A DNA stretch of 64,000 nucleotides from Myxococcales bacterium (GTDB lineage: Bacteria > Myxococcota > Myxococcia > Myxococcales > 40CM-4-68-19). This document shows positions 3,511-64,000 of this stretch, piece after piece. The notes below the pieces were generated by a model, which searched no databases, had not been told where the DNA came from, and was given only the letters and a program-made list of their open reading frames with translations. The stretch is from assembly GCA_020201435.1 (NCBI GenBank), contig JAIVGS010000002.1:8529-72528 (forward strand), in the 5' to 3' direction. The position numbers were made by a program, and so were the translations under genes. Every line of letters starts with the position of its first letter. Position 1 is the stretch's first letter.

Positions 3511-3597
3511 TTGCGGTGGCAAGTAACGACTCGGCGGGCGTCGGGTCAAGCGAATGAAACAAAGGGAAACTCGAAAAAAGCAAAGGACGATGCGGCC

Positions 3598-3759
3598 GCA
3601 GTGACAGTCGAAGGCTCGCGCGAGGCTGCTTCTGATTGCTTCTGCGAGAGGGAAGCGAAAAGGAGAAGGAAAACGAAAAGGAGAAGGAAAACGAAAAGGA
3701 GAAGGAGAAGGAAACAAAAGGATTGGGAGCCCTCGCGCCAGCGCTTCGGGCTGTCACTG
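3598..3759. repeat. Long imperfect inverted repeat enclosing a purine-rich tract (marR/clc divergent intergenic region)
   Basis: The left arm GCAGTGACAGTCGAAGGCTCGCGCGAGGCT (3598-3627) pairs with the right arm AGCCCTCGCGCCAGCGCTTCGGGCTGTCACTG (3728-3759). Paired blocks are CAGTGACAG/CTGTCACTG, CGAAG/CTTCG and GCGCGAGG(G)CT/AGCC(C)TCGCGC. Confidence 0.7.
3656..3714 (+). repeat. Tandem 18-bp purine repeat (CGAAAAGGAGAAGGAAAA), 2 perfect units plus an expanded third
   Basis: Read directly: units at 3656-3673, 3674-3691 and 3692-3714. It is embedded in an ~85 nt near-homopurine run on the + strand. It generates the spurious KEKENEKEKEN and FSFSFSFS ORF translations. Confidence 0.9.
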
Positions 3760-3830
3760 TCGCTGCATTGAAAAGCCTTTTGCTGAAATGCGCGACACCG
3801 TACGCGATTCGTGCCAAAGAAGATGCCGCC

Positions 3831-5795
3831 GTGAGCAGGGTGTCTCCGAAACTGCCGTGGGAACGCGCGGTTGTGATGCTGGTCGCGGCGGTCGTCGGCC
3901 TCTACGGCGGCATCGCGGCGGGGCTGTTTGCGGTCTGCATCCGGTTCGTGCAGCTCTTCCTGTTCCGCGGGCGCGAAGTGGCGATGACGCTCTTCGGACC
4001 GGAGCGCGAGATGTGGGTGCGCTATTTCGCCGAGCGGCTGACGGCGGCGCGGTGGCACCTCGAGTTCGCGGCGCTGGCGGCGCTGATTCTCGCGGCGGCG
4101 GTGGTGCTCGACCGGTTGGGGGGCACGCGGCTGCCGGTCTTCGAGGCGCGGCGGCTGCGGGCGGTGGCGCTCGCGGCGTCGCTCGGGCTCGCGCTCTACT
4201 ACCCACTGGTCCTGGTCAAGACGTTCAACGGCACGTTTCACGAGACCGACGGCGGGCTCTACGAGCTGCTCGCGAATGCGCCGCGATGGATCTGGCTGAT
4301 TGCGCCGGCGATCGGGGCGCTGCTCGCGGCGCTGCTCGTCCGACATGTCAGCCCCGAGAGCGGCGGACACGGAGTCGTCGAGGTGATCGAAGCGGTCCAC
4401 GAGCGCACGCCGATCAAGGGCCGGGTCGCGATCTGGAAGTCGCTGGCAGCGGGCCTCGTCATCGGCTCGGGGGGGAGCGCGGGGCGGGAAGGGCCGGTCG
4501 TGCACCTCGGCGGCGCGGTCGCATCGTCCTTGAGCCGCTTTCTCGAATTGCCGCGCAGCGAGACGTCGATCCTGCTCGCGGCCGGAGCCGGGGCGGGGAT
4601 CGCGGCGTCGTTTCAGGCGCCGCTCGCGGGATCGCTGTTTGCGCTGGAGATCGTCCTGGCGGATTTCGACGTCCGACGCTTCGCGCCGGTGGTGCTGGCG
4701 TGCGTGACGGCGACCGCGACCTCGCGCGCGCTGCTCGGCGGCGGAACCGATCTGCGGCCGGTGAGCTGGACGCTGAACCACCCCTCCGAGATCGCGGTCT
4801 ACCTGCTCCTCGGCATCGTCGCGGGACTGTGCGGGATCGTCTACGTCAAGGCCGTCCATGGCGCGGAGGAGCGGATCCACGCGGTCAAGCTCGGGGCGGT
4901 CACCAAAGCGGCGCTCGGCGGGCTCGTGGTCGGCGCCATCGGCCTCGTCGCCCCGCGCGTCCTCGGGACCGGGATCGAGTCGATGAACGCCGCGCTCGCC
5001 GGCCAGCTGACGTTCGCCGCGCTCCTGCTCGCGCTCGTCGCGAAGATGGTCGCGACCTCGGCCACGCTCGGTTCCGGATCGCCGGGCGGCAGCTTTTTTC
5101 CCGCCGTCTTCCTCGGGGCGATGCTCGGCGGCGCCTTCGGCCACGTCGCCCATGCGGCGCTGCCCGGCATCGTCTCGGGCGCCGATGCGTATGCGGCGGT
5201 CGGCATGGGGGCGGTCGTCGCGGGCGCGACGCTCGCGCCGCTGACCGGCGTGCTGATGATGTTCGAGCTGACCGGCAGCTACCAGATCGTGCTGCCGCTG
5301 CTGGTGGCGTGCGGCGTCGCCGCGGCCATCGCCCACGGCGTCCTGGGCGGGTCGATCTACACCATCGGCGCGCGCCGCCGCGGCATCCGGTTGTCGCGAA
5401 GCGGCCCGCAGCTCTCCGATCTCTCCGTCGCGCAAGCGCTCGATCAGGTCGACCCGATCCCGGCCGATCTTCCCTACGCAGAGCTGCTGCGCGTGATCGG
5501 TCCGACGCTGCACGCGGCGTTTCCGGTGGTCGCCGACGCGCAGGGCGTGATCGGCCTGCTCTCGGTCCGCGAGGTCCGGCGCGCGCTGCTCGATCCGGCC
5601 GTCGACAAGTCCTCGACTGCCCGCAGCTTCACCAAGGCCGCGCAATCGCTGCTGCCCGACGACGACCTCGGCACCGCCGTCCAGCGGCTGGCGGAGACGG
5701 GCGAAGCGCTCGTCGTCGACGCCGAAAACCGCCCGGTCGGCATCATCACCCGAGAGGGTATTCTCGACGCTTGGCGCCGCGCGACCGGGACCTAG
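3831..5795 (+). CDS. ClC family chloride channel / H+-Cl- antiporter with C-terminal CBS-domain pair
   Basis: ORF 3636..5795. It carries ClC signatures GSGGSAGREGP, GIAASFQAPLAG and GSPGGSFFP across many TM segments. The C-terminal CBS pair reads (...AFPVVADAQGVIGLLSVREV..., ...ALVVDAENRPVGIITREGIL). The start was chosen at GTG 3831 (ATG 3876 is the alternative), because upstream codons translate the purine repeat. Confidence 0.85.
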   Translation: MSRVSPKLPWERAVVMLVAAVVGLYGGIAAGLFAVCIRFVQLFLFRGREVAMTLFGPEREMWVRYFAERLTAARWHLEFAALAALILAAAVVLDRLGGTRLPVFEARRLRAVALAASLGLALYYPLVLVKTFNGTFHETDGGLYELLANAPRWIWLIAPAIGALLAALLVRHVSPESGGHGVVEVIEAVHERTPIKGRVAIWKSLAAGLVIGSGGSAGREGPVVHLGGAVASSLSRFLELPRSETSILLAAGAGAGIAASFQAPLAGSLFALEIVLADFDVRRFAPVVLACVTATATSRALLGGGTDLRPVSWTLNHPSEIAVYLLLGIVAGLCGIVYVKAVHGAEERIHAVKLGAVTKAALGGLVVGAIGLVAPRVLGTGIESMNAALAGQLTFAALLLALVAKMVATSATLGSGSPGGSFFPAVFLGAMLGGAFGHVAHAALPGIVSGADAYAAVGMGAVVAGATLAPLTGVLMMFELTGSYQIVLPLLVACGVAAAIAHGVLGGSIYTIGARRRGIRLSRSGPQLSDLSVAQALDQVDPIPADLPYAELLRVIGPTLHAAFPVVADAQGVIGLLSVREVRRALLDPAVDKSSTARSFTKAAQSLLPDDDLGTAVQRLAETGEALVVDAENRPVGIITREGILDAWRRATGT

Positions 5796-5905
5796 GTCGG
5801 AGATTCGGGGACACAATACTTATCTCCGACTTTAGCGCGGCCCCTTCCCCCGGCATGTATGACTCCCTGAGTCGGAGTTGAGTATTGTGTCCCCATAACT
5901 CCGAC
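5796..5905. repeat. Nested inverted repeat: two 35-bp hairpin units in inverted orientation separated by 40 bp
   Basis: Unit A (5796-5830) is GTCGGAGATTCGGGGACACAATACTTATCTCCGAC. Unit B (5871-5905) is GTCGGAGTTGAGTATTGTGTCCCCATAACTCCGAC. Each has a perfect 9-bp stem and a 17-nt loop. B matches the reverse complement of A at 30/35 positions. Confidence 0.85.
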
Positions 5906-5923
5906 GTGCATCGGAGGTGGGTG

Positions 5924-7420
5924 ATGGAGAGGTTCAACATCGGGGCGGAGTTGATCGAGCGGAACCTGCGGGAGGGCCGCGGGCGGAGCCCGGCCATCTG
6001 GGCGGCGGGGAAGACGCTGACGTACGGCGAGCTGTCGGCGCTGGTAGACCGGGTGGGCGCCGCGTTTCTGAAGGCGGGAGTGAAGCCGGAGCAGCGCGTG
6101 CTGATGGTGATGCCGGACTCGCCGGAGCTCGCCGCCTGCTATCTCGCGGCGATGAAGATCGGGGCCGTCGCGGTGCCCTGCAATCCGCTGCTGCGGACGG
6201 CTGACTACGCGTATTTCCTCGAGGAATCGCGCGCGGCGCTGGTCGTCACCGCGGCTGCGCTGCGCGAAAAGCTGCCCCGGCACGACAAGCCGATGCTGGT
6301 CACCGGCGTCGACTTCGAGAAAGCGCTCGCCGAAGTTCCCGAGCAGAAACTGGAGGCGGCGCCGACGAGCAAGGACGAGGCCGCGTTCTGGCTCTGGACG
6401 AGCGGCTCGACCGGCAAGCCGAAAGCTGCCGTCCACGCGCACCAGGACTGGCCGCACTGCTGCGAGCTCTACGGGCAAGGCATCCTGAACCTCCAGCCGA
6501 AAGACCGCTGCTACTCGGCTTCCAAGCTCTTCCACGCCTACGGTCTCGGCAACGCGCTCGCCTTCCCGTTCTGGGTCGGCGCGAGCACGATCCTTTCGCC
6601 CGACCGCCCCACCCCCGACGTCGTCTACAAGGCCATCGCGGACGGCCGGCCGACGATCTTCTTCGGCGTCCCCACGCTCTACGCCGCGATGCTGCAGGCA
6701 AAGGGCGATCCGGAGGTGGAGAGCCTGCGCGTCTGCGTCTCGGCCGGCGAGCCGCTCCCGGGCGATCTCTTCAGCCGCTGGAAGTCGCGCTTCGGCACCG
6801 AGATCCTCGACGGAATCGGTTCCACCGAAGTCCTGCACATCTACGTTTCACCCCGAATGGGCGCGGCCAAGCCCGGCTCGACCGGCCTTCCCGTCGACGG
6901 CTACCAGGTCCGTATCGTCGACGAGCTCGGAAACGACGTGCGCGAAGGTGAGACCGGCGACCTCGTCGTCCGCGGCGCCTCGACCGCGCTCTTCTACTGG
7001 AACCGCAAGGACCAGAGCCGCCAGAAGATGCGGGGCGAGTGGTTCTTCTCGGGCGACAAGTTCCGCCAGACCGAGGACGGCGAGTTCCACTACGTCGGCC
7101 GCTCGGACGACATGTTCAAGACCGCGGGCGAGTGGATCTCCCCCGCCGACGTCGAGTCAGCGCTGATCTCACATGGCGCGGTCCTCGAGTGCGCGGTGGT
7201 GGCGAAGAAGAGCGAGGACGGGCTGCTCAGGCCGCGCGCGCACGTCGTCCTCGTCCAGGGCAAGCAGGGCTCGCCCGAGCTCGCCGAGGAGCTCAAGCAG
7301 CACGTCCGCGGCAAGTGCGCGGGCTACATGGTGCCGCGCGACATCGTCTTCGCAACCGAGCTGCCGAAGACGGCGACCGGCAAGATCCAGCGATTCCTGC
7401 TGCGCGACGCGGATGTCTGA
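5924..7420 (+). CDS. AMP-forming acyl-CoA ligase, benzoate-CoA ligase family
   Basis: ORF 5885..7420, start at ATG 5924 after GGAGG. It has the AMP-binding motifs WLWTSGSTGKPKAAVH, YGLGN and GEWFFSGDKF, and a C-terminal PKTATGKIQRF. Overall similarity is to aromatic-acid CoA ligases. Confidence 0.85.
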   Translation: MERFNIGAELIERNLREGRGRSPAIWAAGKTLTYGELSALVDRVGAAFLKAGVKPEQRVLMVMPDSPELAACYLAAMKIGAVAVPCNPLLRTADYAYFLEESRAALVVTAAALREKLPRHDKPMLVTGVDFEKALAEVPEQKLEAAPTSKDEAAFWLWTSGSTGKPKAAVHAHQDWPHCCELYGQGILNLQPKDRCYSASKLFHAYGLGNALAFPFWVGASTILSPDRPTPDVVYKAIADGRPTIFFGVPTLYAAMLQAKGDPEVESLRVCVSAGEPLPGDLFSRWKSRFGTEILDGIGSTEVLHIYVSPRMGAAKPGSTGLPVDGYQVRIVDELGNDVREGETGDLVVRGASTALFYWNRKDQSRQKMRGEWFFSGDKFRQTEDGEFHYVGRSDDMFKTAGEWISPADVESALISHGAVLECAVVAKKSEDGLLRPRAHVVLVQGKQGSPELAEELKQHVRGKCAGYMVPRDIVFATELPKTATGKIQRFLLRDADV

Positions 7421-7825: not shown

Positions 7826-10768
7826 ATGCTGGCGGTAGTTACGGCGTTCGTGCTGCTGGCGGCCGTCCCCGCCGAGCCGCCCGGCCGATTCGCGTTCCGC
7901 AGCTACGCCAGCGAGCAGGGATTGGAGAACCTATCGGTCCTCGCCATCGTCCAGGATCGCGAAGGATTCCTGTGGGTTGCGACCGAGGACGGCCTCTACC
8001 GCTACGACGGCGACCGCTTCCACCGGTTCGGCGCCGAGGACGGCCTGCCGTCCAACCAGATGACCTCGATCGCTCTCGGCGACGACGGCCGGTTGTGGGC
8101 CGGCACGTTCCGCGGCGTGGCGCTCTTCGACCAGGGCCGCTTCCGCCAGGTGGCGAAGTCGCTTCCCGATCTGCTCATCAAAGGGCTCGCCCCGGCCCCC
8201 GGCGGCGCGCTCTGGGTCGCGACCGGCGCGGGGCTTTTCTTCGAGTCGAGCCGCGAAAAATTCGACGCCGTCCCGGGGTGGCCGGCGGCCGTGTCCGCGA
8301 CGGCGGTCTGGGCCGACGCGCGCGGGATCGTCGCCGCCACTCCCGGCCGCCTCTACACGCAAAAAGAGCGACGGTGGGTCGCGCACGAGGCCGAGCCGGA
8401 GCGCATCGACGCGGTCGTCCGCGATCGCCGCGGTACCATCTGGGCGCGCTCCGCCGGCCATCTCTGGGCGCTCGCCGATGGGATGGAAAAGCTGGAGGAC
8501 TTCACCCACGTCCTGCCCGGCTCCAGCGACACCGGGTACCTCTCCCTCGACCAGCAGGGCACCCTCTGGGTCCCGACCGACTCGGGCCTCCTCTACAAGG
8601 AGGAGGGTGGACCGTGGAGCGTGATCGGACCCGCGCAGGGCCTGCCGGCCTCGTGGGCGCGCACCGCGGCCGAGGATCGCGAAGGCTCGATCTGGATCGG
8701 CGTCACCGGCCTGCACCGCGCCGTCGGCCGCGGGCTGTGGCGCGTCTATTCGACCCGCGAAGGGCTGCCCAGCGAGGTGGTGTGGACCGAATGGCGCGAC
8801 AAGAAAGGAGCGCTCTACGTCGGCACCGATCGCGGTCTGGTCCGCGCGGCCAACTCCCGCTTCGAGCTCGTCCGCGGCAGCGAAGGCCACGCCATCCGCT
8901 CGGTGACCCAGCTGAAGGACGGCGCGCTCTGGATGGGCGGCAGCCCGCCGGAACTGCTCAGGATCGACGAGGGCAGGGTCGACCGCTTCCCGATCCGCGC
9001 CCGGAAGGTGTTGACGCTCCTCGCCTCCAGCCGCGACGAGCTGTTCGTCGGCACCGACGGCGGCGGACTGCTCGAGCTGCAGGGCAACGAGCTGGTGCCG
9101 GTCGCGGTCCCCGGCGGCAGCGTGCAGGAGCGCTTCAGCCACGTGATCGAGGATCGGACCGGGCGCATCTGGGCGGCCGGCGAGCTCGGACTCGCCTTCC
9201 GCGGCAAGAACGGCGAGTGGCATCGGCTCGGCACCGCCGACGGCCTGCGCGACGAGCGCACCGCGTACCTGCTCGAGCGCCGCTCGGGCGACATCTGCGT
9301 CGCGTACCGCGAGACGATCGGTTTCTCCTGCTTCCGGCCCACCGCGCAGGGACTGCGCGCCGTGCAGCACATCGACGCGTCGAACGGCCTGCAGAACGCC
9401 CGCGTCTACCTGCTCGGCGAGGACCGCAACGGCCGGCTCTGGGTCGGCACCGGCCAGGGCGCGGACGTCTTCGACGCGCATGGCACCGAGCACTTCGGCC
9501 AGGCGCGCGGCATGGCCGGCGACGACTGCGACGCCAACGCGTTCCTCGCCGATCCCAACGGCGACGTCTGGCTCGGCACCAGCACCGGCCTGGCGCGCTT
9601 CATCGGCGGAAACTACGCAGGGCCCCCCGATCCGCCGCACCCGGTGATCGTCGAGGCCCGGGTCGGCAACTCGCGGCTGCTCGGCAAGGAGCTGCACAAG
9701 GTCGAAGGGCGCAATCCCGCGCTGGAGGTGCACTTCGCGGGCCTCTCGTTCCTCGACGAGGCGCGGGTGCAGCACCAGGTGCGCCTGTTGCCGCTCGAGC
9801 CGGAATGGCGGCAGGCCAGCGTGCGCGAGGCGCGGTACAGCGCGCTCGGGCCGGGCAGCTACGTGTTCGAGGTGCGGGCGCGGATGGCGCCGGGCGCCTG
9901 GAGCGAGCCGGCGCGGCTCGATTTCGTCCTTTTGCCGCAGTGGTGGCAGACGGTATGGTTCCGGGTCTCCGTCTCCCTGGCCGCGGCGGCGCTGCTCGGG
10001 TGGGTCGTCAACTGGCGCGTGCGGCGGCTGCAGCAGCGCAATCGCGAGCTGGAAAGCCAGGTGAACGTCCGGACCGGCGAGCTGGCCTCGGCGAACCAGG
10101 CGCTGCGGGATCTGGCGGTGAGCGACCCGCTGACCGGGCTCAAGAACCGGCGATACCTCGAGCTGGCGATGCCGGAGACGGTCGCGCAGGTGATGCGCCA
10201 CCACCGCGGCCCGAGACCGGCCAAAGCCAACGCCGACCTGCTGCTGCTGATCATCGACCTCGACGATTTCAAGAGGATCAACGACACCTGGGGCCACGGC
10301 GCGGGCGACCGCGTGCTGCAGCAGGCCGGGAAACTGGTGGCGCAGATCTGCCGCGAGTCGGACTCGCCGGTGCGCTGGGGCGGCGAGGAGTTCGTCGTCG
10401 TCGCGCGCAACGCCGACCGCGCGATGGCCGCGAGCGTGGCGGAGCGCATCTGCGAGCTGTTCCGCGAGCACGACTTCGACGTCGGCGGCGGACAGACGGT
10501 CGACGTCACCTGCTCGGTGGGGCTGGCGGCGTTTCCGTTCGCCGACCTGCCGTGGGAGGACGTGATCGAGCTCGCCGACCATTGCCTCTACGCGGCGAAG
10601 CGCGCGGGCAAGGACTGCTGGGCGATGGCGACCCCTTCTCCGGCGCTGCAGGCCGCCGACTTGAGCCGCCGACTGCGCGGCGAATTCGCCCAGCTCGTCT
10701 CCGAGCGCCAGATCGTGCTCACGCTCTCCGCAGAAGTCCCGTCCGTCCTCGCGCAGGCCGGCCACTAG
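7826..10768 (+). CDS. Sensor diguanylate cyclase: periplasmic two-component-regulator propeller repeats + Y_Y_Y-like region + TM + GGDEF
   Basis: ORF 7826..10768 (980 aa). It has a signal peptide, many repeats of the GLPSN...D..G.LWVGT type, and a TM segment (WFRVSVSLAAAALLGWVV). The GGDEF domain reads DPLTGLKNRRY...IIDLDDFKRINDTWGHGAGD...RWGGEEFVVV. Confidence 0.9.
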   Translation: MLAVVTAFVLLAAVPAEPPGRFAFRSYASEQGLENLSVLAIVQDREGFLWVATEDGLYRYDGDRFHRFGAEDGLPSNQMTSIALGDDGRLWAGTFRGVALFDQGRFRQVAKSLPDLLIKGLAPAPGGALWVATGAGLFFESSREKFDAVPGWPAAVSATAVWADARGIVAATPGRLYTQKERRWVAHEAEPERIDAVVRDRRGTIWARSAGHLWALADGMEKLEDFTHVLPGSSDTGYLSLDQQGTLWVPTDSGLLYKEEGGPWSVIGPAQGLPASWARTAAEDREGSIWIGVTGLHRAVGRGLWRVYSTREGLPSEVVWTEWRDKKGALYVGTDRGLVRAANSRFELVRGSEGHAIRSVTQLKDGALWMGGSPPELLRIDEGRVDRFPIRARKVLTLLASSRDELFVGTDGGGLLELQGNELVPVAVPGGSVQERFSHVIEDRTGRIWAAGELGLAFRGKNGEWHRLGTADGLRDERTAYLLERRSGDICVAYRETIGFSCFRPTAQGLRAVQHIDASNGLQNARVYLLGEDRNGRLWVGTGQGADVFDAHGTEHFGQARGMAGDDCDANAFLADPNGDVWLGTSTGLARFIGGNYAGPPDPPHPVIVEARVGNSRLLGKELHKVEGRNPALEVHFAGLSFLDEARVQHQVRLLPLEPEWRQASVREARYSALGPGSYVFEVRARMAPGAWSEPARLDFVLLPQWWQTVWFRVSVSLAAAALLGWVVNWRVRRLQQRNRELESQVNVRTGELASANQALRDLAVSDPLTGLKNRRYLELAMPETVAQVMRHHRGPRPAKANADLLLLIIDLDDFKRINDTWGHGAGDRVLQQAGKLVAQICRESDSPVRWGGEEFVVVARNADRAMAASVAERICELFREHDFDVGGGQTVDVTCSVGLAAFPFADLPWEDVIELADHCLYAAKRAGKDCWAMATPSPALQAADLSRRLRGEFAQLVSERQIVLTLSAEVPSVLAQAGH

Positions 10769-10931: not shown

Positions 10932-11369
10932 GTGCCGGACAAGGAACCGGTGGGGCTGTTGATCGGGGCGGCGCGCAGGAGGATGAAGCGCGCGGTCACC
11001 GACCGGGTGAAGCCGCACGGCCTCACCGCGCAGCAGTTCTGGGCGCTGGTCAACATCGACGAAGCCGACGGGTCGTCGCTGGGCGAGGTCGCCGACCGCC
11101 TGCGGATGGACGCGCCCACCGCCTCCCGTGCCGTCACCCAGCTTCTGCGCCGCAAGCTGGTCAAGGCCGAAGGCGATCGCGGCGATCGCCGCCGGCTGCG
11201 CCTGCGGTTGACACCGGCCGGCCGCGCGCGGATGCCGCCCTTGCGCGCGCTCGCCGCCGAGCTTCGCGGCGCCGCCGTGCACGGCCTTTCCGGCGACGAG
11301 GAAGCTGCGTTGCGCGGCCTGTTGCGCAAGGTGATCGCGAACCTCGACGCGCTGATCCGGCCCTCCTAG
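10932..11369 (+). CDS. MarR family transcriptional regulator (paralog of 3043..3510)
   Basis: ORF 10932..11369 (145 aa). The sequence PVGLLIGAARRRMKRAV...LTAQQFWALVNI...SLGEVADRLRMDAPTASRAVTQLLRRKLV...DRRRLRLRLTPAG aligns along its length with the first MarR. Confidence 0.85.
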   Translation: MPDKEPVGLLIGAARRRMKRAVTDRVKPHGLTAQQFWALVNIDEADGSSLGEVADRLRMDAPTASRAVTQLLRRKLVKAEGDRGDRRRLRLRLTPAGRARMPPLRALAAELRGAAVHGLSGDEEAALRGLLRKVIANLDALIRPS

Positions 11370-46797: not shown

Positions 46798-46910
46798 CCA
46801 AAAAGCAAAATCTCACCGCGAAGACGCGAAGGGTTAAGTTCGCAGGCCCAACGTCGCCGAGCAACCAACCCGAAACCTTTGCGCCTTCGCGCCTTCGCGG
46901 TGCGCAGTCG
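46798..46910. repeat. Hairpin repeat element, copy E3
   Basis: AAAAAGCAAAATCTCACCGCGAAGACGCGAAGGG (arm 46814-46833) pairs with CCTTTGCGCCTTCGCGCCTTCGCGGTG (46876-46902). It lies between the lon stop and the kinase start. Confidence 0.8.
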
Positions 46911-46913
46911 CTC

Positions 46914-49214
<2,301 letters not shown>

Positions 49215-61582: not shown

Positions 61583-62128
61583 ATGACCAAGGCCGACAAG
61601 GCGAGCGACCTGTCCGAGGCCGCGCTGGCCCTCGACCACGAGCTGCGCCGCTTCGAAGACCTCGCCGCGCAGGCCGCCCGGATCCGCCTCAACACCGAAA
61701 AGAACGTCGAGCGCGCGACCGACGCGCTCTCTCGCGCCGCCGAGAGCCAGGACCGGATCAACGCCATCGTCCAGCAGTTGGTCAAGGCGGTGGGTGCGGC
61801 GCGTCAGAAGCAGGAATCCGACGCCGCCGCGCTGATCGCCCGCGCCCAGGAGATCGCGGCCCGCCGCAAGCAGTTTGCCGACGTGCTGCAGCGGATGGCC
61901 GGCCTTGGTCAAATGGCCAAGGAAGTGCAGGAGCTGCTCAAGTCCGGCCCCGGGAACTTCGACGAGATCCAGCAGCGGATGCAGAGAGTGGCCGACGACG
62001 CCGCCGAGATCGGCAAGGCAGCGCAAGACCAGGACATGGAAGACCTCTCCCGCCAGGCCGACGTCCTCCGCCAGCAGGTCCTCTCCGCGAAGAACAAGGT
62101 TTCGATCCTCGCCGCCAAAAAAAGCTGA
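61583..62128 (+). CDS. Hypothetical coiled-coil protein
   Basis: ORF 61583..62128 (181 aa). It is Ala/Gln/Glu-rich with a heptad-like sequence and good codon bias. It contains one palindrome copy. Confidence 0.55.
   Translation: MTKADKASDLSEAALALDHELRRFEDLAAQAARIRLNTEKNVERATDALSRAAESQDRINAIVQQLVKAVGAARQKQESDAAALIARAQEIAARRKQFADVLQRMAGLGQMAKEVQELLKSGPGNFDEIQQRMQRVADDAAEIGKAAQDQDMEDLSRQADVLRQQVLSAKNKVSILAAKKS
61905..61920. repeat. TTGGTCA-NN-TGACCAA family copy (TTGGTCAAATGGCCAA, 1 mismatch)
   Basis: Read directly, inside the coiled-coil gene. It encodes LGQMAK. Confidence 0.75.
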
Positions 62129-62236
62129 ACTGCGCACCGCGAAGACGCGAAGGGGCTGGGTTTGGCAACCAACGCCGCCACGCATGAACCGGAAACCTTT
62201 GCGCCTTCGCGCCTTCGCGGTGCGATTTTGTTTTAG
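62118..62236. repeat. Hairpin repeat element, copy E4
   Basis: The arm CACCGCGAAGACGCGAAGGGG (62135-62154) pairs with CCTTTGCGCCTTCGCGCCTTCGCGGTG (62196-62222). It lies between two convergent stops (62128 and 62240). Confidence 0.8.
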
Positions 62237-62239
62237 CCT

Positions 62240-64000
62240 TTAGGAGACGGCCCGCAGACGCGCCTGCTTGCGGGGCACGCGCAGGACGAACTCCGCCCCC
62301 GGACCGGGGCGCACTTCGAGCGTCCCGCCGAGACTTTGCATGACTCGCCACGCGATCGTCAGCCCCAGCCCCATCCCGCGCCCGGGCCCCTTGGTGGTGA
62401 AGAACGGCGTGAAAATCCGCGCCATCTCTTCCGCCTTCACGCCCGGCCCGTTGTCCTTCACCGACATCACGACGCTTTCGCCCTCGACGTACCCGCGCAC
62501 TCGAACCAGCCCGCTCACGTCGGGCGAGGCCTCGATCGCGTTCTGCAACAGGTTGGTCAGGACCTGGTTGAACTCCTCCGGCACGCACTCCACCGTCCCG
62601 TCTCCGATCAGGTCGGTCTCGACCTTCACCGCCCGCCCCGTCGCCGGCAGGACCATCGCGATCGCCTCCCGCGCCGCCGCGAACACGTCGTGCGGCCGGA
62701 TCGCCCGCGTATACCCCGCCCGCCCGTACGACGACATCAGCTCGACCGTCCCCGCGATCCGCTTGATCCCGCTCTCGGCGATGTCGAACAGCTCGCGCAT
62801 CCGCGCCGCCGTCTTCGAAACCTCCTCGGCAGACAGCTTCCCCTCGACCAGCGCGGAAGCGTCGATCCGCACCCTCGCGAGCGCATTCTTCAAGTAATTC
62901 AACGGGTTATTGATCTCGTGCGCGAGCCCGCCGGCGACGATCTCGAGCGAGTCCATCCGCTGCGTCAGCACGATGTCCGCGGTCGTCGCCTGCTGCTGCA
63001 CGAGCGCCCGCGCATTCGTCAACAGCTCGCGCGGCGAAAAGGGCTTCGCCAGGTACGCATTGACGCCCGTCTCGATGCCCTGCACCCGCGCGTCGAGGTC
63101 GCCGCGAGCCGTGAGCATCAGGATCGGAATGTGCCGCGTCTCTTCCGACGCCCGCAGCCGCCGGGTCAGCTCGAGCCCATCGATCCCCGGCATCATGAGA
63201 TCGGCGATGATCAGCGAGGGCCGCTCGCGCACGGCCATCTCCAGGCCCTTCAAGCCGTCCTCGGCGGAGACGACCTTGAAGTGCGACCGCAGCGACTGGT
63301 GCACGAGGCGAATGATGTCCGGCGTATCGTCGACCACGAGCGCCACGTGCGGCCGGAGGTGCTCGTCGATGTCCCGCAGCGACACGCGCCGCTCGGTCGC
63401 CTCGGCGATGTCGAGCAGCCGGTATTCGTCCCGCGCCGCCATCTGCACCGCGAAGTCCATCAGCCCCCGGTCGTTCGCGCGCGCCCCCGCCGGCACGTCC
63501 CGCGTCGGCCCGCGCCGCTCGAGCACCTCGGTCCGGAAGTGCTCGCGGTCCTTCATCAGCTCGACCGTGAACCGCGCGCCGGAAACCGACTCGGCGCGGA
63601 TCCGGCCGCCGTGCAGCCCGACGATCTCCTTCGCCAGCGCGAGCCCGATCCCGGTCCCCCCGTACCGCCGCGTCCCGCCCATGTCGACCTGGTAGAAGCG
63701 CTCGAAGATCTGCTCCGCCTTCTCCGGCGGAAAGCCCGGCCCGTCGTCCTGGACCAGCACCAGCACCGACGCCCCGACGTCGTCGAGCCGCACCAGGATG
63801 TGCCCGCCCGGCGGGGTGAACTTGGTCGCGTTCGACAGCAGGTTCAAGAAGACCCGCTCGAGCCGCTCGATGTCGCACCAGACCATACACTTCTCTTCCG
63901 GCACCGACAGCCGCAGCTCGATCCCCTTCCGCTCCGCCAGCGGCTGCACCTGCGCGACCAGGCCGCGCAGGTACTCCCCGAGGTCCTGCTCCGCGATCTT
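62240..64000 (-). CDS. Hybrid sensor histidine kinase/response regulator (HATPase - REC - HisKA - HATPase); the 5' end lies beyond the window
   Basis: ORF 62240..63949, and the frame stays open to 64000. The first ATPase has NLLSNATKFTPPGG...DDGPGF...GGTGIGLA. The REC domain has VVDDTPD...DLMMPGIDG...KPF. The second core has GGLAHEINNPL and NLLQNAIEA...DNGPGV...GMGLGL. Confidence 0.85.
   Translation of the reverse strand, partial: KIAEQDLGEYLRGLVAQVQPLAERKGIELRLSVPEEKCMVWCDIERLERVFLNLLSNATKFTPPGGHILVRLDDVGASVLVLVQDDGPGFPPEKAEQIFERFYQVDMGGTRRYGGTGIGLALAKEIVGLHGGRIRAESVSGARFTVELMKDREHFRTEVLERRGPTRDVPAGARANDRGLMDFAVQMAARDEYRLLDIAEATERRVSLRDIDEHLRPHVALVVDDTPDIIRLVHQSLRSHFKVVSAEDGLKGLEMAVRERPSLIIADLMMPGIDGLELTRRLRASEETRHIPILMLTARGDLDARVQGIETGVNAYLAKPFSPRELLTNARALVQQQATTADIVLTQRMDSLEIVAGGLAHEINNPLNYLKNALARVRIDASALVEGKLSAEEVSKTAARMRELFDIAESGIKRIAGTVELMSSYGRAGYTRAIRPHDVFAAAREAIAMVLPATGRAVKVETDLIGDGTVECVPEEFNQVLTNLLQNAIEASPDVSGLVRVRGYVEGESVVMSVKDNGPGVKAEEMARIFTPFFTTKGPGRGMGLGLTIAWRVMQSLGGTLEVRPGPGAEFVLRVPRKQARLRAVS

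Follow-up and report, generated by a model that had tools for sequence, protein, structure and literature searches.

The spacer between a ClC chloride channel gene and a benzoate-CoA-ligase-family gene in a Myxococcales bacterium holds two inverted 35-nt repeat units, lying within the 64-kb stretch of DNA analysed here (the window). We propose, with a probability of roughly 85%, that these units are TIRYT terminal repeats paired in a REPIN-like, non-autonomous dimer, and hence miniature mobile DNA of a kind already known. Most probably the dimer consists of two TIRtron ends with no gene between them. Direct support comes from the membership of both units in a dispersed repeat family, the link of that family to Y1 transposase genes, the occurrence of head-to-head dimers that are copied as units, the dispersal of the 35-nt variant, and the absence of the element from distant orthologous loci.

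A nested inverted repeat in the ClC–ligase spacer

The intergenic spacer is 128 nt long, and the two repeat units and the genes on either side are arranged as follows.

3636–5795, plus strand: ClC chloride channel gene with CBS domain, the upstream flank; its TAG stop (5793–5795) abuts unit A
5796–5830, minus strand: unit A, a repeat copy reading GTCGGAGATTCGGGGACACAATACTTATCTCCGAC; the 27-nt family core lies at 5801–5827 and reads GGAGATAAGTATTGTGTCCCCGAATCT on the minus strand
5796–5804 with 5822–5830: local 9-bp stem of unit A, from the lineage-specific extension GTCGG / GAC
5831–5870, no strand: spacer between the units, 40 nt (46 nt core to core)
5871–5905, plus strand: unit B, a repeat copy reading GTCGGAGTTGAGTATTGTGTCCCCATAACTCCGAC; the 27-nt core lies at 5874–5900 and reads GGAGTTGAGTATTGTGTCCCCATAACT
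5871–5879 with 5897–5905: local 9-bp stem of unit B
5912–7420, plus strand: benzoate-CoA-ligase-family (AMP-binding) gene, with a GGAGG ribosome-binding site at 5912–5916, ATG at 5924 and the end of the coding sequence at 7420

The upstream gene product carries Voltage_CLC and CBS domains, and the downstream product AMP-binding and AMP-binding_C domains. In the NCBI gene call the ligase starts at a GTG at 5906, immediately 3′ of unit B, as against the ATG at 5924. Much of what an earlier note on this DNA had described holds at the level of single bases: unit A begins one base past the ClC stop, 18 nt separate the end of unit B at 5905 from the ligase ATG, each unit has a perfect 9-bp stem, and unit B matches the reverse complement of unit A at 30 of 35 positions. 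The loop core that was said to be common to the two units also exists, but it is 14 nt long (AGTATTGTGTCCCC), one more than the 13 nt claimed. An inverted-repeat search of the window returned the A/B pair with 36-nt arms that are 86% complementary. The window has two matches to the stem–loop–stem pattern, and 100 shuffles had none; the core sequence lies solely at these two sites, and the window holds one doublet in all. The 40-nt spacer has no copies elsewhere, and a loose alignment links its 3′ part to the sequence that precedes unit B in an orthologous locus (L003). Because the same doublet is present, base for base, in a second, independent assembly that is 99.8% identical (L001; GCA_046262975.1, a Myxococcales metagenome-assembled genome (MAG)), it is no assembly artefact.

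Predicted RNA folding gave −13.4 kcal/mol for unit A, −12.7 kcal/mol for unit B and −57.6 kcal/mol for the entire 110 nt (z = −8.05); a 141-nt context folded at −64.2 kcal/mol (z = −4.85). The long A:B duplex is thus predicted to exceed the two local hairpins in stability by about 31 kcal/mol, and both the ribosome-binding site and the start codon lie outside either structure. Folded as DNA, the dimer is predicted to form a hairpin of −29 to −31 kcal/mol. No U-tract follows hairpin A or hairpin B, a promoter scan of the region returned no sigma-70-like site, and a terminator consensus scan returned one weak terminator-like hairpin, located in the spacer. An Rfam search of positions 5600–6100 matched no family; the best hit, to a plant miRNA model, scored 24 bits where the cut-off is 75. 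The same database, used in gathering mode on 18 related loci, gave spurious miRNA and snoRNA hits, tRNAs and one group II intron elsewhere.

The units belong to a repeat family found in many phyla

Scanning 185,579 species-representative genomes with the pattern GGAGNNNAGTATTGTGTCCCC yielded 111 copies in 93 stretches from 59 assemblies of many phyla (assemblies counted by accession prefix), against about 17 hits expected by chance under a uniform model and hand arithmetic. The hosts include Alpha- and Gammaproteobacteria, deltaproteobacterial MAGs, Acidobacteriota, Nitrospirae, Planctomycetota and the PVC group, as well as Elusimicrobia, WOR-3, Hyd24-12, Anaerolineales and two clostridial MAGs. 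Positions not fixed by the search pattern were strongly biased, with T/A, T and A inside and GGAAYT after, and the borders were sharp on both sides; the family unit is therefore the 27-mer GGAGWTAAGTATTGTGTCCCCGGAAYT. With up to six mismatches to this consensus allowed, the fetched loci contained 169 copies, whereas shuffled loci contained none. Other genomes carry between 3 and 13 repeat loci each (exact 21-mer), 13 being the maximum. Across many phyla this 27-nt end hardly varies, which may merit a study of its own. A literature text search with the core sequence strings returned no match, and the exact TIR was not found in IMG/VR viral contigs.

The local stem behaves differently from the core. 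A perfect GGAGWT/AWCTCC stem was present in 5 of 105 family copies, compared with a mean of 4.6 when the 3′ segments were permuted, and the table of A/T pairings was mixed, so covariation of the local stem across the family found no support. The A:T versus T:A difference that the earlier note had called compensatory is real for the two copies in the window, but it has no covariation support family-wide. The nested local hairpins are a feature of this lineage and not of the whole family. A CRISPR-like repeat was also considered and set aside, as the units are inverted and not direct.

The repeat brackets genes for a Y1 transposase

Clustering of the open reading frames near the repeat loci gave one recurrent protein of about 220 amino acids (220–225), with the pattern MARxARVVxPGxPHHVTQRGNRRQ...YCLMPNHVHL...YLWQGRF...Y[IV]ELNPVRA...WSS...ERTGRPLG...KPGPKP. 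This protein matches the Pfam family Y1_Tnp at 45 bits (cut-off 23), and its gene, or fragments of it, lies in 15 of the 93 repeat loci. Inverted repeat copies bracket the Y1 gene (in L014, L023, L043, L045, L072 and L086, among others), one about 30–60 nt upstream and the other across the stop codon, such that the TAA within the GGAGWTAAG of the downstream copy is the stop of the gene. Against NCBIfam NF047646, the equivalog model for REP-associated tyrosine transposases, two associated proteins scored 73.9 and 68.6 bits, below the cut-off of 80. The closest solved structure is Escherichia coli TnpA-REP (4er8; E = 2.7e-4, 24 bits).

These features agree with a described subclass of Y1 transposases. 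TnpA-Y1 subclass 2.1 (Group 1 of Bertels) is characterized by proteins of about 238 amino acids with the motifs NHVH, W[EQ] and YIELNP (Quentin et al. 2018, PMC6006769, Table 1), and the associated proteins have PNHVHL, YLWQGRF and Y[IV]ELNPVRA at 220–225 amino acids. The same study treats subclass 2.1 as identical to the TIRYTs of Di Nocera et al. 2013 (PMC3733652), for which a C-terminal helix–turn–helix extension (Bac_DnaA_C-, HTH_23- or HTH_28-like) serves as a membership criterion. The associated proteins do have a conserved C-terminal tail, ERTGRPLG...KPGPKP, and no Pfam helix–turn–helix model matches it at E ≤ 10. TIRtrons are Y1 genes flanked by terminal inverted repeats (TIRs) that share GGGGWSAS, and TIR families are moderately abundant and arranged as singles, dimers or clusters (PMC3733652). 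The outward-facing strand of both units in the window reads GGGGACAC, which fits this consensus. The action of TIRYTs on TIRs has been proposed, without a reported experiment, in both studies (PMC6006769, PMC3733652).

The associated transposase clade has at least 8,000 members in the protein database. A tblastn search returned no Y1 gene in the 64-kb window and no TIRYT gene on the short, myxobacterial-type metagenome contigs that bear the GTCGGAG variant, where all matches were marginal (E ≥ 0.016). Among 72,556 plasmids no match reached 80% coverage of the TIRYT protein, and identity stayed below 46% throughout. A Y1_Tnp gene near one orthologous ligase locus (L112) belongs to another family (HuH motif NHLHL) and is not surrounded by TIR copies.

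Head-to-head dimers are copied as units

Away from the Y1 gene, many repeat copies stand solo and others form tandem clusters (L045, L069, L104). With neighbours defined as copies no more than 300 nt apart, there were 54 neighbouring pairs. Their orientations were distributed as follows.

Minus–plus pairs (GGGGACAC...CTCC, gap, GGAG...GTGTCCCC): 39
Plus–minus pairs: 1
Tandem pairs: 14 (9 minus–minus and 5 plus–plus)

Head-to-head arrangement thus accounts for 39 of 40 neighbouring inverted pairs, and it is also the orientation of the copies around the transposase gene. The pair in the window is of this kind, with 46 nt between the cores; gaps of such doublets elsewhere range from 1 to 214 nt and include 42, 46 and 56 nt. 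In the MAG LQ108M_Bin_12, at least seven loci share an identical doublet with an identical 15-nt spacer, and we therefore conclude that doublets are copied as a unit.

The 35-nt GTCGGAG...CTCCGAC variant is itself dispersed. It occurs in the window, in the deltaproteobacterial MAG DP_35 and on 14 high-GC soil metagenome contigs, and a copy with 35/35 identity to unit A stands in an unrelated context (L067/L100). Elsewhere the neighbouring genes of this variant include rpsI and those for an HMG-CoA reductase, an MFS transporter and a DUF1349 protein, all unrelated to aromatic-acid metabolism. When the variant-bearing contigs were compared with the window by blastn, no match of 60 nt or more was found except at the orthologous locus L098; the short matches fall within 5789–5841 and 5868–5921, with the exception of one of 46 nt at 1831–1876. 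No direct repeat surrounds the dimer in the window, and its flanks, GTCGG and CCGAC, are inverted; inverted flanks without a target duplication fit a Y1 enzyme and not a DDE transposase.

Orthologous ligase loci point to insertion and turnover

The comparison of regions upstream of orthologous ligase genes that the earlier note had suggested went against ligase-specific conservation. The state of the repeat at each orthologous locus, with the identity of the ligase to that of the window, is as follows.

L003 and L098, ligase 88%: unit B alone, 32/35 identical, at equal distance to the ribosome-binding site
L113, ligase 87%: a TIR of another variant, AAATACGTATTGTGTCCCCGAATT, which L100 shares; its distance to the ribosome-binding site is 13 nt shorter
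L002, L111, L112 and L114, ligase 82, 78, 76 and 73%: repeat copy absent

L112 keeps the ClC–ligase gene order with a 51-nt spacer that is free of the repeat. In L003, a local alignment that looked for a remnant of unit A was no better than shuffles (p = 0.34). The coding sequences of the window and L003 are 86.6% identical, and third codon positions 75–78%. Against the third-position baseline, the 32/35 identity of unit B is a marginal excess (binomial p = 0.014–0.034), whereas against the whole-gene baseline of 86.6% the excess is gone (p = 0.29). The identity of unit B in L003/L098 may leave room for some constraint or co-option. As judged from these sequences, the ortholog pattern is one of lineage-restricted insertion and turnover, not of a control element that has been conserved.

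Alternative explanations

The earlier note read the nested repeat as a conformational switch for the CoA-ligase gene, in the manner of an attenuator, a riboswitch or a cruciform, and on paper both kinds of structure can form. We now give next to no credence to a riboswitch or attenuator that responds to a ligand and controls an aromatic-acid CoA ligase by alternating between the long duplex and a pair of local hairpins. The two-hairpin state lies about 31 kcal/mol above the favoured duplex, which makes a balanced switch unlikely; Rfam offers no match; the ribosome-binding site and start codon take part in neither structure; the element lacks conservation upstream of orthologues, and at 82% ligase identity and below it is absent; an identical sequence occurs in unrelated contexts and at the ends of transposase genes; and the local stem is no family-wide property (5/105 versus 4.6 permuted). 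The same counter-evidence tells against the earlier suggestion that the units are two operator half-sites for a regulator of the ligase. That a transcription factor controlling the ligase or a regulon binds here draws on the palindromic form of the units and on the MarR-family genes found near three orthologous loci (L002, L112, L114), but no MarR gene is among the scanned open reading frames adjoining the site in the window, many phyla share an identical 27-nt core, which is tied to the termini of Y1 transposase genes and not to any regulator gene, the contexts of the repeat are unrelated, and a centre-to-centre distance of 75 bp in the window together with gaps of 1–214 nt elsewhere misfits a fixed operator geometry; we hold this reading to be highly improbable. 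More generally, a role specific to this locus, which the earlier note had itself set against dispersal of copies in unrelated contexts, gives way to the finding of copies beside unrelated genes in related genomes, even with one doublet in the window. A domesticated RNA conformational device, in which a co-transcriptional hairpin A, hairpin B and the A:B duplex fix or shift the relative expression of ClC and CoA ligase, would account for the retention of unit B directly ahead of the ligase ribosome-binding site in at least three lineages; we consider it very unlikely.

The remaining alternatives accept a mobile origin or are compatible with one. The earlier note also offered a MITE of about 110 bp with 35-bp terminal inverted repeats, and this stands in so far as the feature is a miniature element; its type, however, is that of the Y1 (HUH) TIRYT repeats and not that of a classical DDE-type MITE. 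A MITE derived from a DDE-transposase insertion sequence would share the size of about 110 bp, the long terminal inverted repeats, the lack of coding capacity and the dispersed family, but the dimer in the window has no target-site duplication, none was apparent at the doublets inspected in other genomes, and the sole gene recurrently bracketed by the repeats is that of the Y1 HUH transposase, which leaves such an origin scarcely probable. A separate question is whether an inserted element has since been recruited as a cis-acting RNA, with unit B or the A:B hairpin selected as an intercistronic stabiliser, a partial terminator or a damper of translation. This reading is compatible with the mobile-element origin, and both can hold. 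It is favoured by a very stable predicted hairpin that exactly occupies the interval from the ClC stop codon to the ribosome-binding site of the ligase, by unit B at the same place in L003/L098 with an identity (32/35) somewhat above the 75–78% at synonymous positions, by a TIR-derived core directly before the ribosome-binding site in L113, and by roles of REPs in transcription termination and mRNA stabilisation that are reported in PMC3733652. Set against these points are the missing U-tract, with one weak terminator-like site that lies in the spacer; the absence of the element from orthologues at 82% or below, including L112 with the same ClC–ligase order; the different TIR variant and 13-nt shorter distance in L113, which look like turnover and not conservation; and an excess of conservation that is marginal and disappears with the 86.6% baseline (p = 0.29). 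On balance, co-option of this kind seems unlikely, if less so than the regulatory readings above.

Relationship to known repeat–transposase systems

The nearest known system is the TIRtron with its TIRYT (PMC3733652, PMC6006769). Besides the repeat start GGGGACAC, which conforms to GGGGWSAS, the repeat in other genomes brackets the gene for a Y1 protein of about 220 amino acids with NHVH, W[EQ] and YIELNP, the 3′ TIR overlaps the end of the gene, and copies away from the gene occur as singles, dimers and clusters. The window differs in that it contains the dimer alone, without a transposase, and in that its lineage has a 35-nt form with the self-complementary ends GTCGGAG...CTCCGAC. Pfam, moreover, detects no C-terminal helix–turn–helix in the associated proteins, and Quentin et al. 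(PMC6006769), in contrast to the present findings, reported that REP-like sequences were not found near subclass 2.1 genes.

REPINs and their RAYTs (Bertels & Rainey 2011, PMC3116915; Bertels et al. 2017, PMC5581495) likewise consist of two inverted repeats with a short spacer that together form a hairpin; their repeats are extragenic and also flank a Y1 transposase gene, and within a genome the doublet multiplies as a whole. The present units start with GTCGGAG, and the family core with GGAG, so that the GT[AG]G foot (GTAG or GTGG; definition in PMC6006769) is absent, and the associated proteins remain under the NCBI RAYT cut-off (74 and 69 versus 80 bits). For want of this foot, and with scores short of the equivalog cut-off, the feature is classed among REPIN-like, TIRYT-type TIR repeats and not as a canonical REPIN. 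Copy number is also moderate here, at no more than 13 loci per genome (exact 21-mer), and the repeat is near-identical across phyla, whereas each tnpA-REP gene has its own REP family (PMC6006769).

The REP and BIME elements of E. coli and their TnpA-REP (4er8; PMC3479197) share with this family the intergenic palindromic repeats and the possibility of RNA hairpins, and TnpA-REP is the nearest structure to the associated protein, although the similarity is weak at 24 bits. Each E. coli REP is palindromic and has a GTAG guide, whereas a single 27-mer here is not generally self-complementary. With IS200/IS605 the associated protein shares the Y1_Tnp catalytic domain, and a single-strand mechanism without target duplication would be expected of both; those elements, however, have subterminal hairpins and no terminal inverted repeats, and their TnpA structures match the associated protein less well than TnpA-REP does (E = 0.06).

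Proposed route of insertion and possible effects on the transcript

By analogy with the TnpA of IS200/IS605 and with TnpA-REP of E. coli, the repeat would be recognised in single-stranded DNA, with the dimer folded as a hairpin, by a TIRYT whose gene lies elsewhere in the genome. Its catalytic tyrosine would then cut and rejoin the DNA without target duplication, as described for related enzymes (PMC6006769, PMC3479197), and such transposition would be the route by which the copy or copies entered the ClC–ligase spacer. The element at this locus would then be a passenger and not a sensor. If the ClC and ligase genes are co-transcribed, folding models predict one very stable RNA hairpin of about −58 kcal/mol that would span from the ClC stop codon to 6 nt before the ligase ribosome-binding site. 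As with REP and BIME sequences, this hairpin could shield the 3′ end of the ClC message, cause partial transcription termination or lower ligase translation.

Implications

As a dimer of TIRYT terminal repeats, this locus is itself an ordinary case. The ClC–ligase spacer consists almost entirely of mobile-element ends, and it should therefore not be annotated as a dedicated control region for aromatic-acid metabolism. The wider interest lies in the TIRYT family, which is poorly studied: its near-invariant 27-nt end, its head-to-head dimers and the copying of these dimers as units offer a simple in vitro substrate, with which one could ask whether subclass 2.1 enzymes act on such ends as RAYTs do on REPINs.

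Transposon ends are conserved beyond their transposases

The 27-nt repeat GGAGWTAAGTATTGTGTCCCCGGAAYT (TIR), which forms the ends of the TIRYT-type Y1 (HUH) transposase element, is nearly invariant across 59 assemblies from many phyla; identity between the Y1 proteins adjoining these ends falls to about 50–60% (loci L004–L096). These loci were picked by an exact 21-mer, which biases them towards apparent invariance of the end; the positions of GGAGWTAAGTATTGTGTCCCCGGAAYT outside this selection are conserved too.

Orthologous ligase loci

A TIR variant whose inner half differs, AAATACGTATTGTGTCCCCGAATT, lies directly before the ligase ribosome-binding site in the orthologous locus L113 (1–60) and recurs in a high-GC soil metagenome contig (L100, about 1570–1600), where it adjoins other TIR copies. 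The first 30 nt of L113, at the contig end, form a perfect palindrome that may be an assembler artefact. At the orthologous locus L002 (ligase identity 82%), a palindrome of about 150 nt, built from runs of GACGTT/GACGTG hexamers, lies after the stop codon of the ClC gene (8258–8410), and a 495-aa gene without a Pfam match is inserted between the ClC and ligase genes on the opposite strand. At a third locus (L112), the orthologous ligase–hydrolase–MarR cluster is followed 1.4 kb downstream by a Y1_Tnp gene of another type, and no TIR copy was found near this gene:

L112 5991–6605, minus strand: Y1_Tnp gene, 204 aa, HuH motif NHLHL

Other repeats in the window

Three further repeats were observed in the window:

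16559, 19463, 19775, 20098, 42577, 42784, 57402, 60969, 61905: 16-bp palindrome TTGGTCAAATGACCAA
10769–10904, 46801–46926, 62122–62246: hairpin element of about 110–130 nt, arms CACCGCGAAGRCGCGAAG / CTTCGCGCCTTCGCGGTG
3649–3714: purine-rich 18-nt unit AGGAAAACGAAAAGGAGA, repeated in tandem about 3.5 times, 5′ end of the long ClC open reading frame

The nine TTGGTCAAATGACCAA sites were found at up to two mismatches, where shuffled sequences predict none; they belong either to another repeat, unrelated to the TIR, or to a family of binding sites. The first of the three hairpin copies starts directly 3′ of the stop codon of the GGDEF gene, and a 7.4-kb contig of the sister assembly (GCA_046262975.1) ends near this copy, at window position 11046. 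The sister contig starts at position 3596, just upstream of the tandem repeat.

Family size and copied units

The TIRYT-like protein family comprises at least 8,000 members at E ≤ 1e-20 in the protein database search. Very many of the proteins among the matches listed (P0121–P0240) are encoded on contigs of just 0.9–1.5 kb, as if flanking repeats break assemblies. No plasmid among 72,556 matched a TIRYT-like protein at ≥80% coverage, and the exact TIR had no match in IMG/VR viral contigs.

At least seven loci of the metagenome-assembled genome LQ108M_Bin_12 (L026, L033, L046, L047, L073, L087 and L092) share the same doublet of neighbouring inverted TIR copies, with an identical 15-nt spacer, gccaaacggggcgtg. 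The outer flanks are partly conserved (ggaactaaatgggcc...gagggacgac), and the unit copied in this genome is larger than the doublet. Elsewhere (L016/L085, on one Allosphingosinicella contig, L045, L051 and L074), tandem TIR copies each hold the final 30–100 codons of the transposase gene, which suggests that the 3′ end of the element has been partially duplicated again and again.
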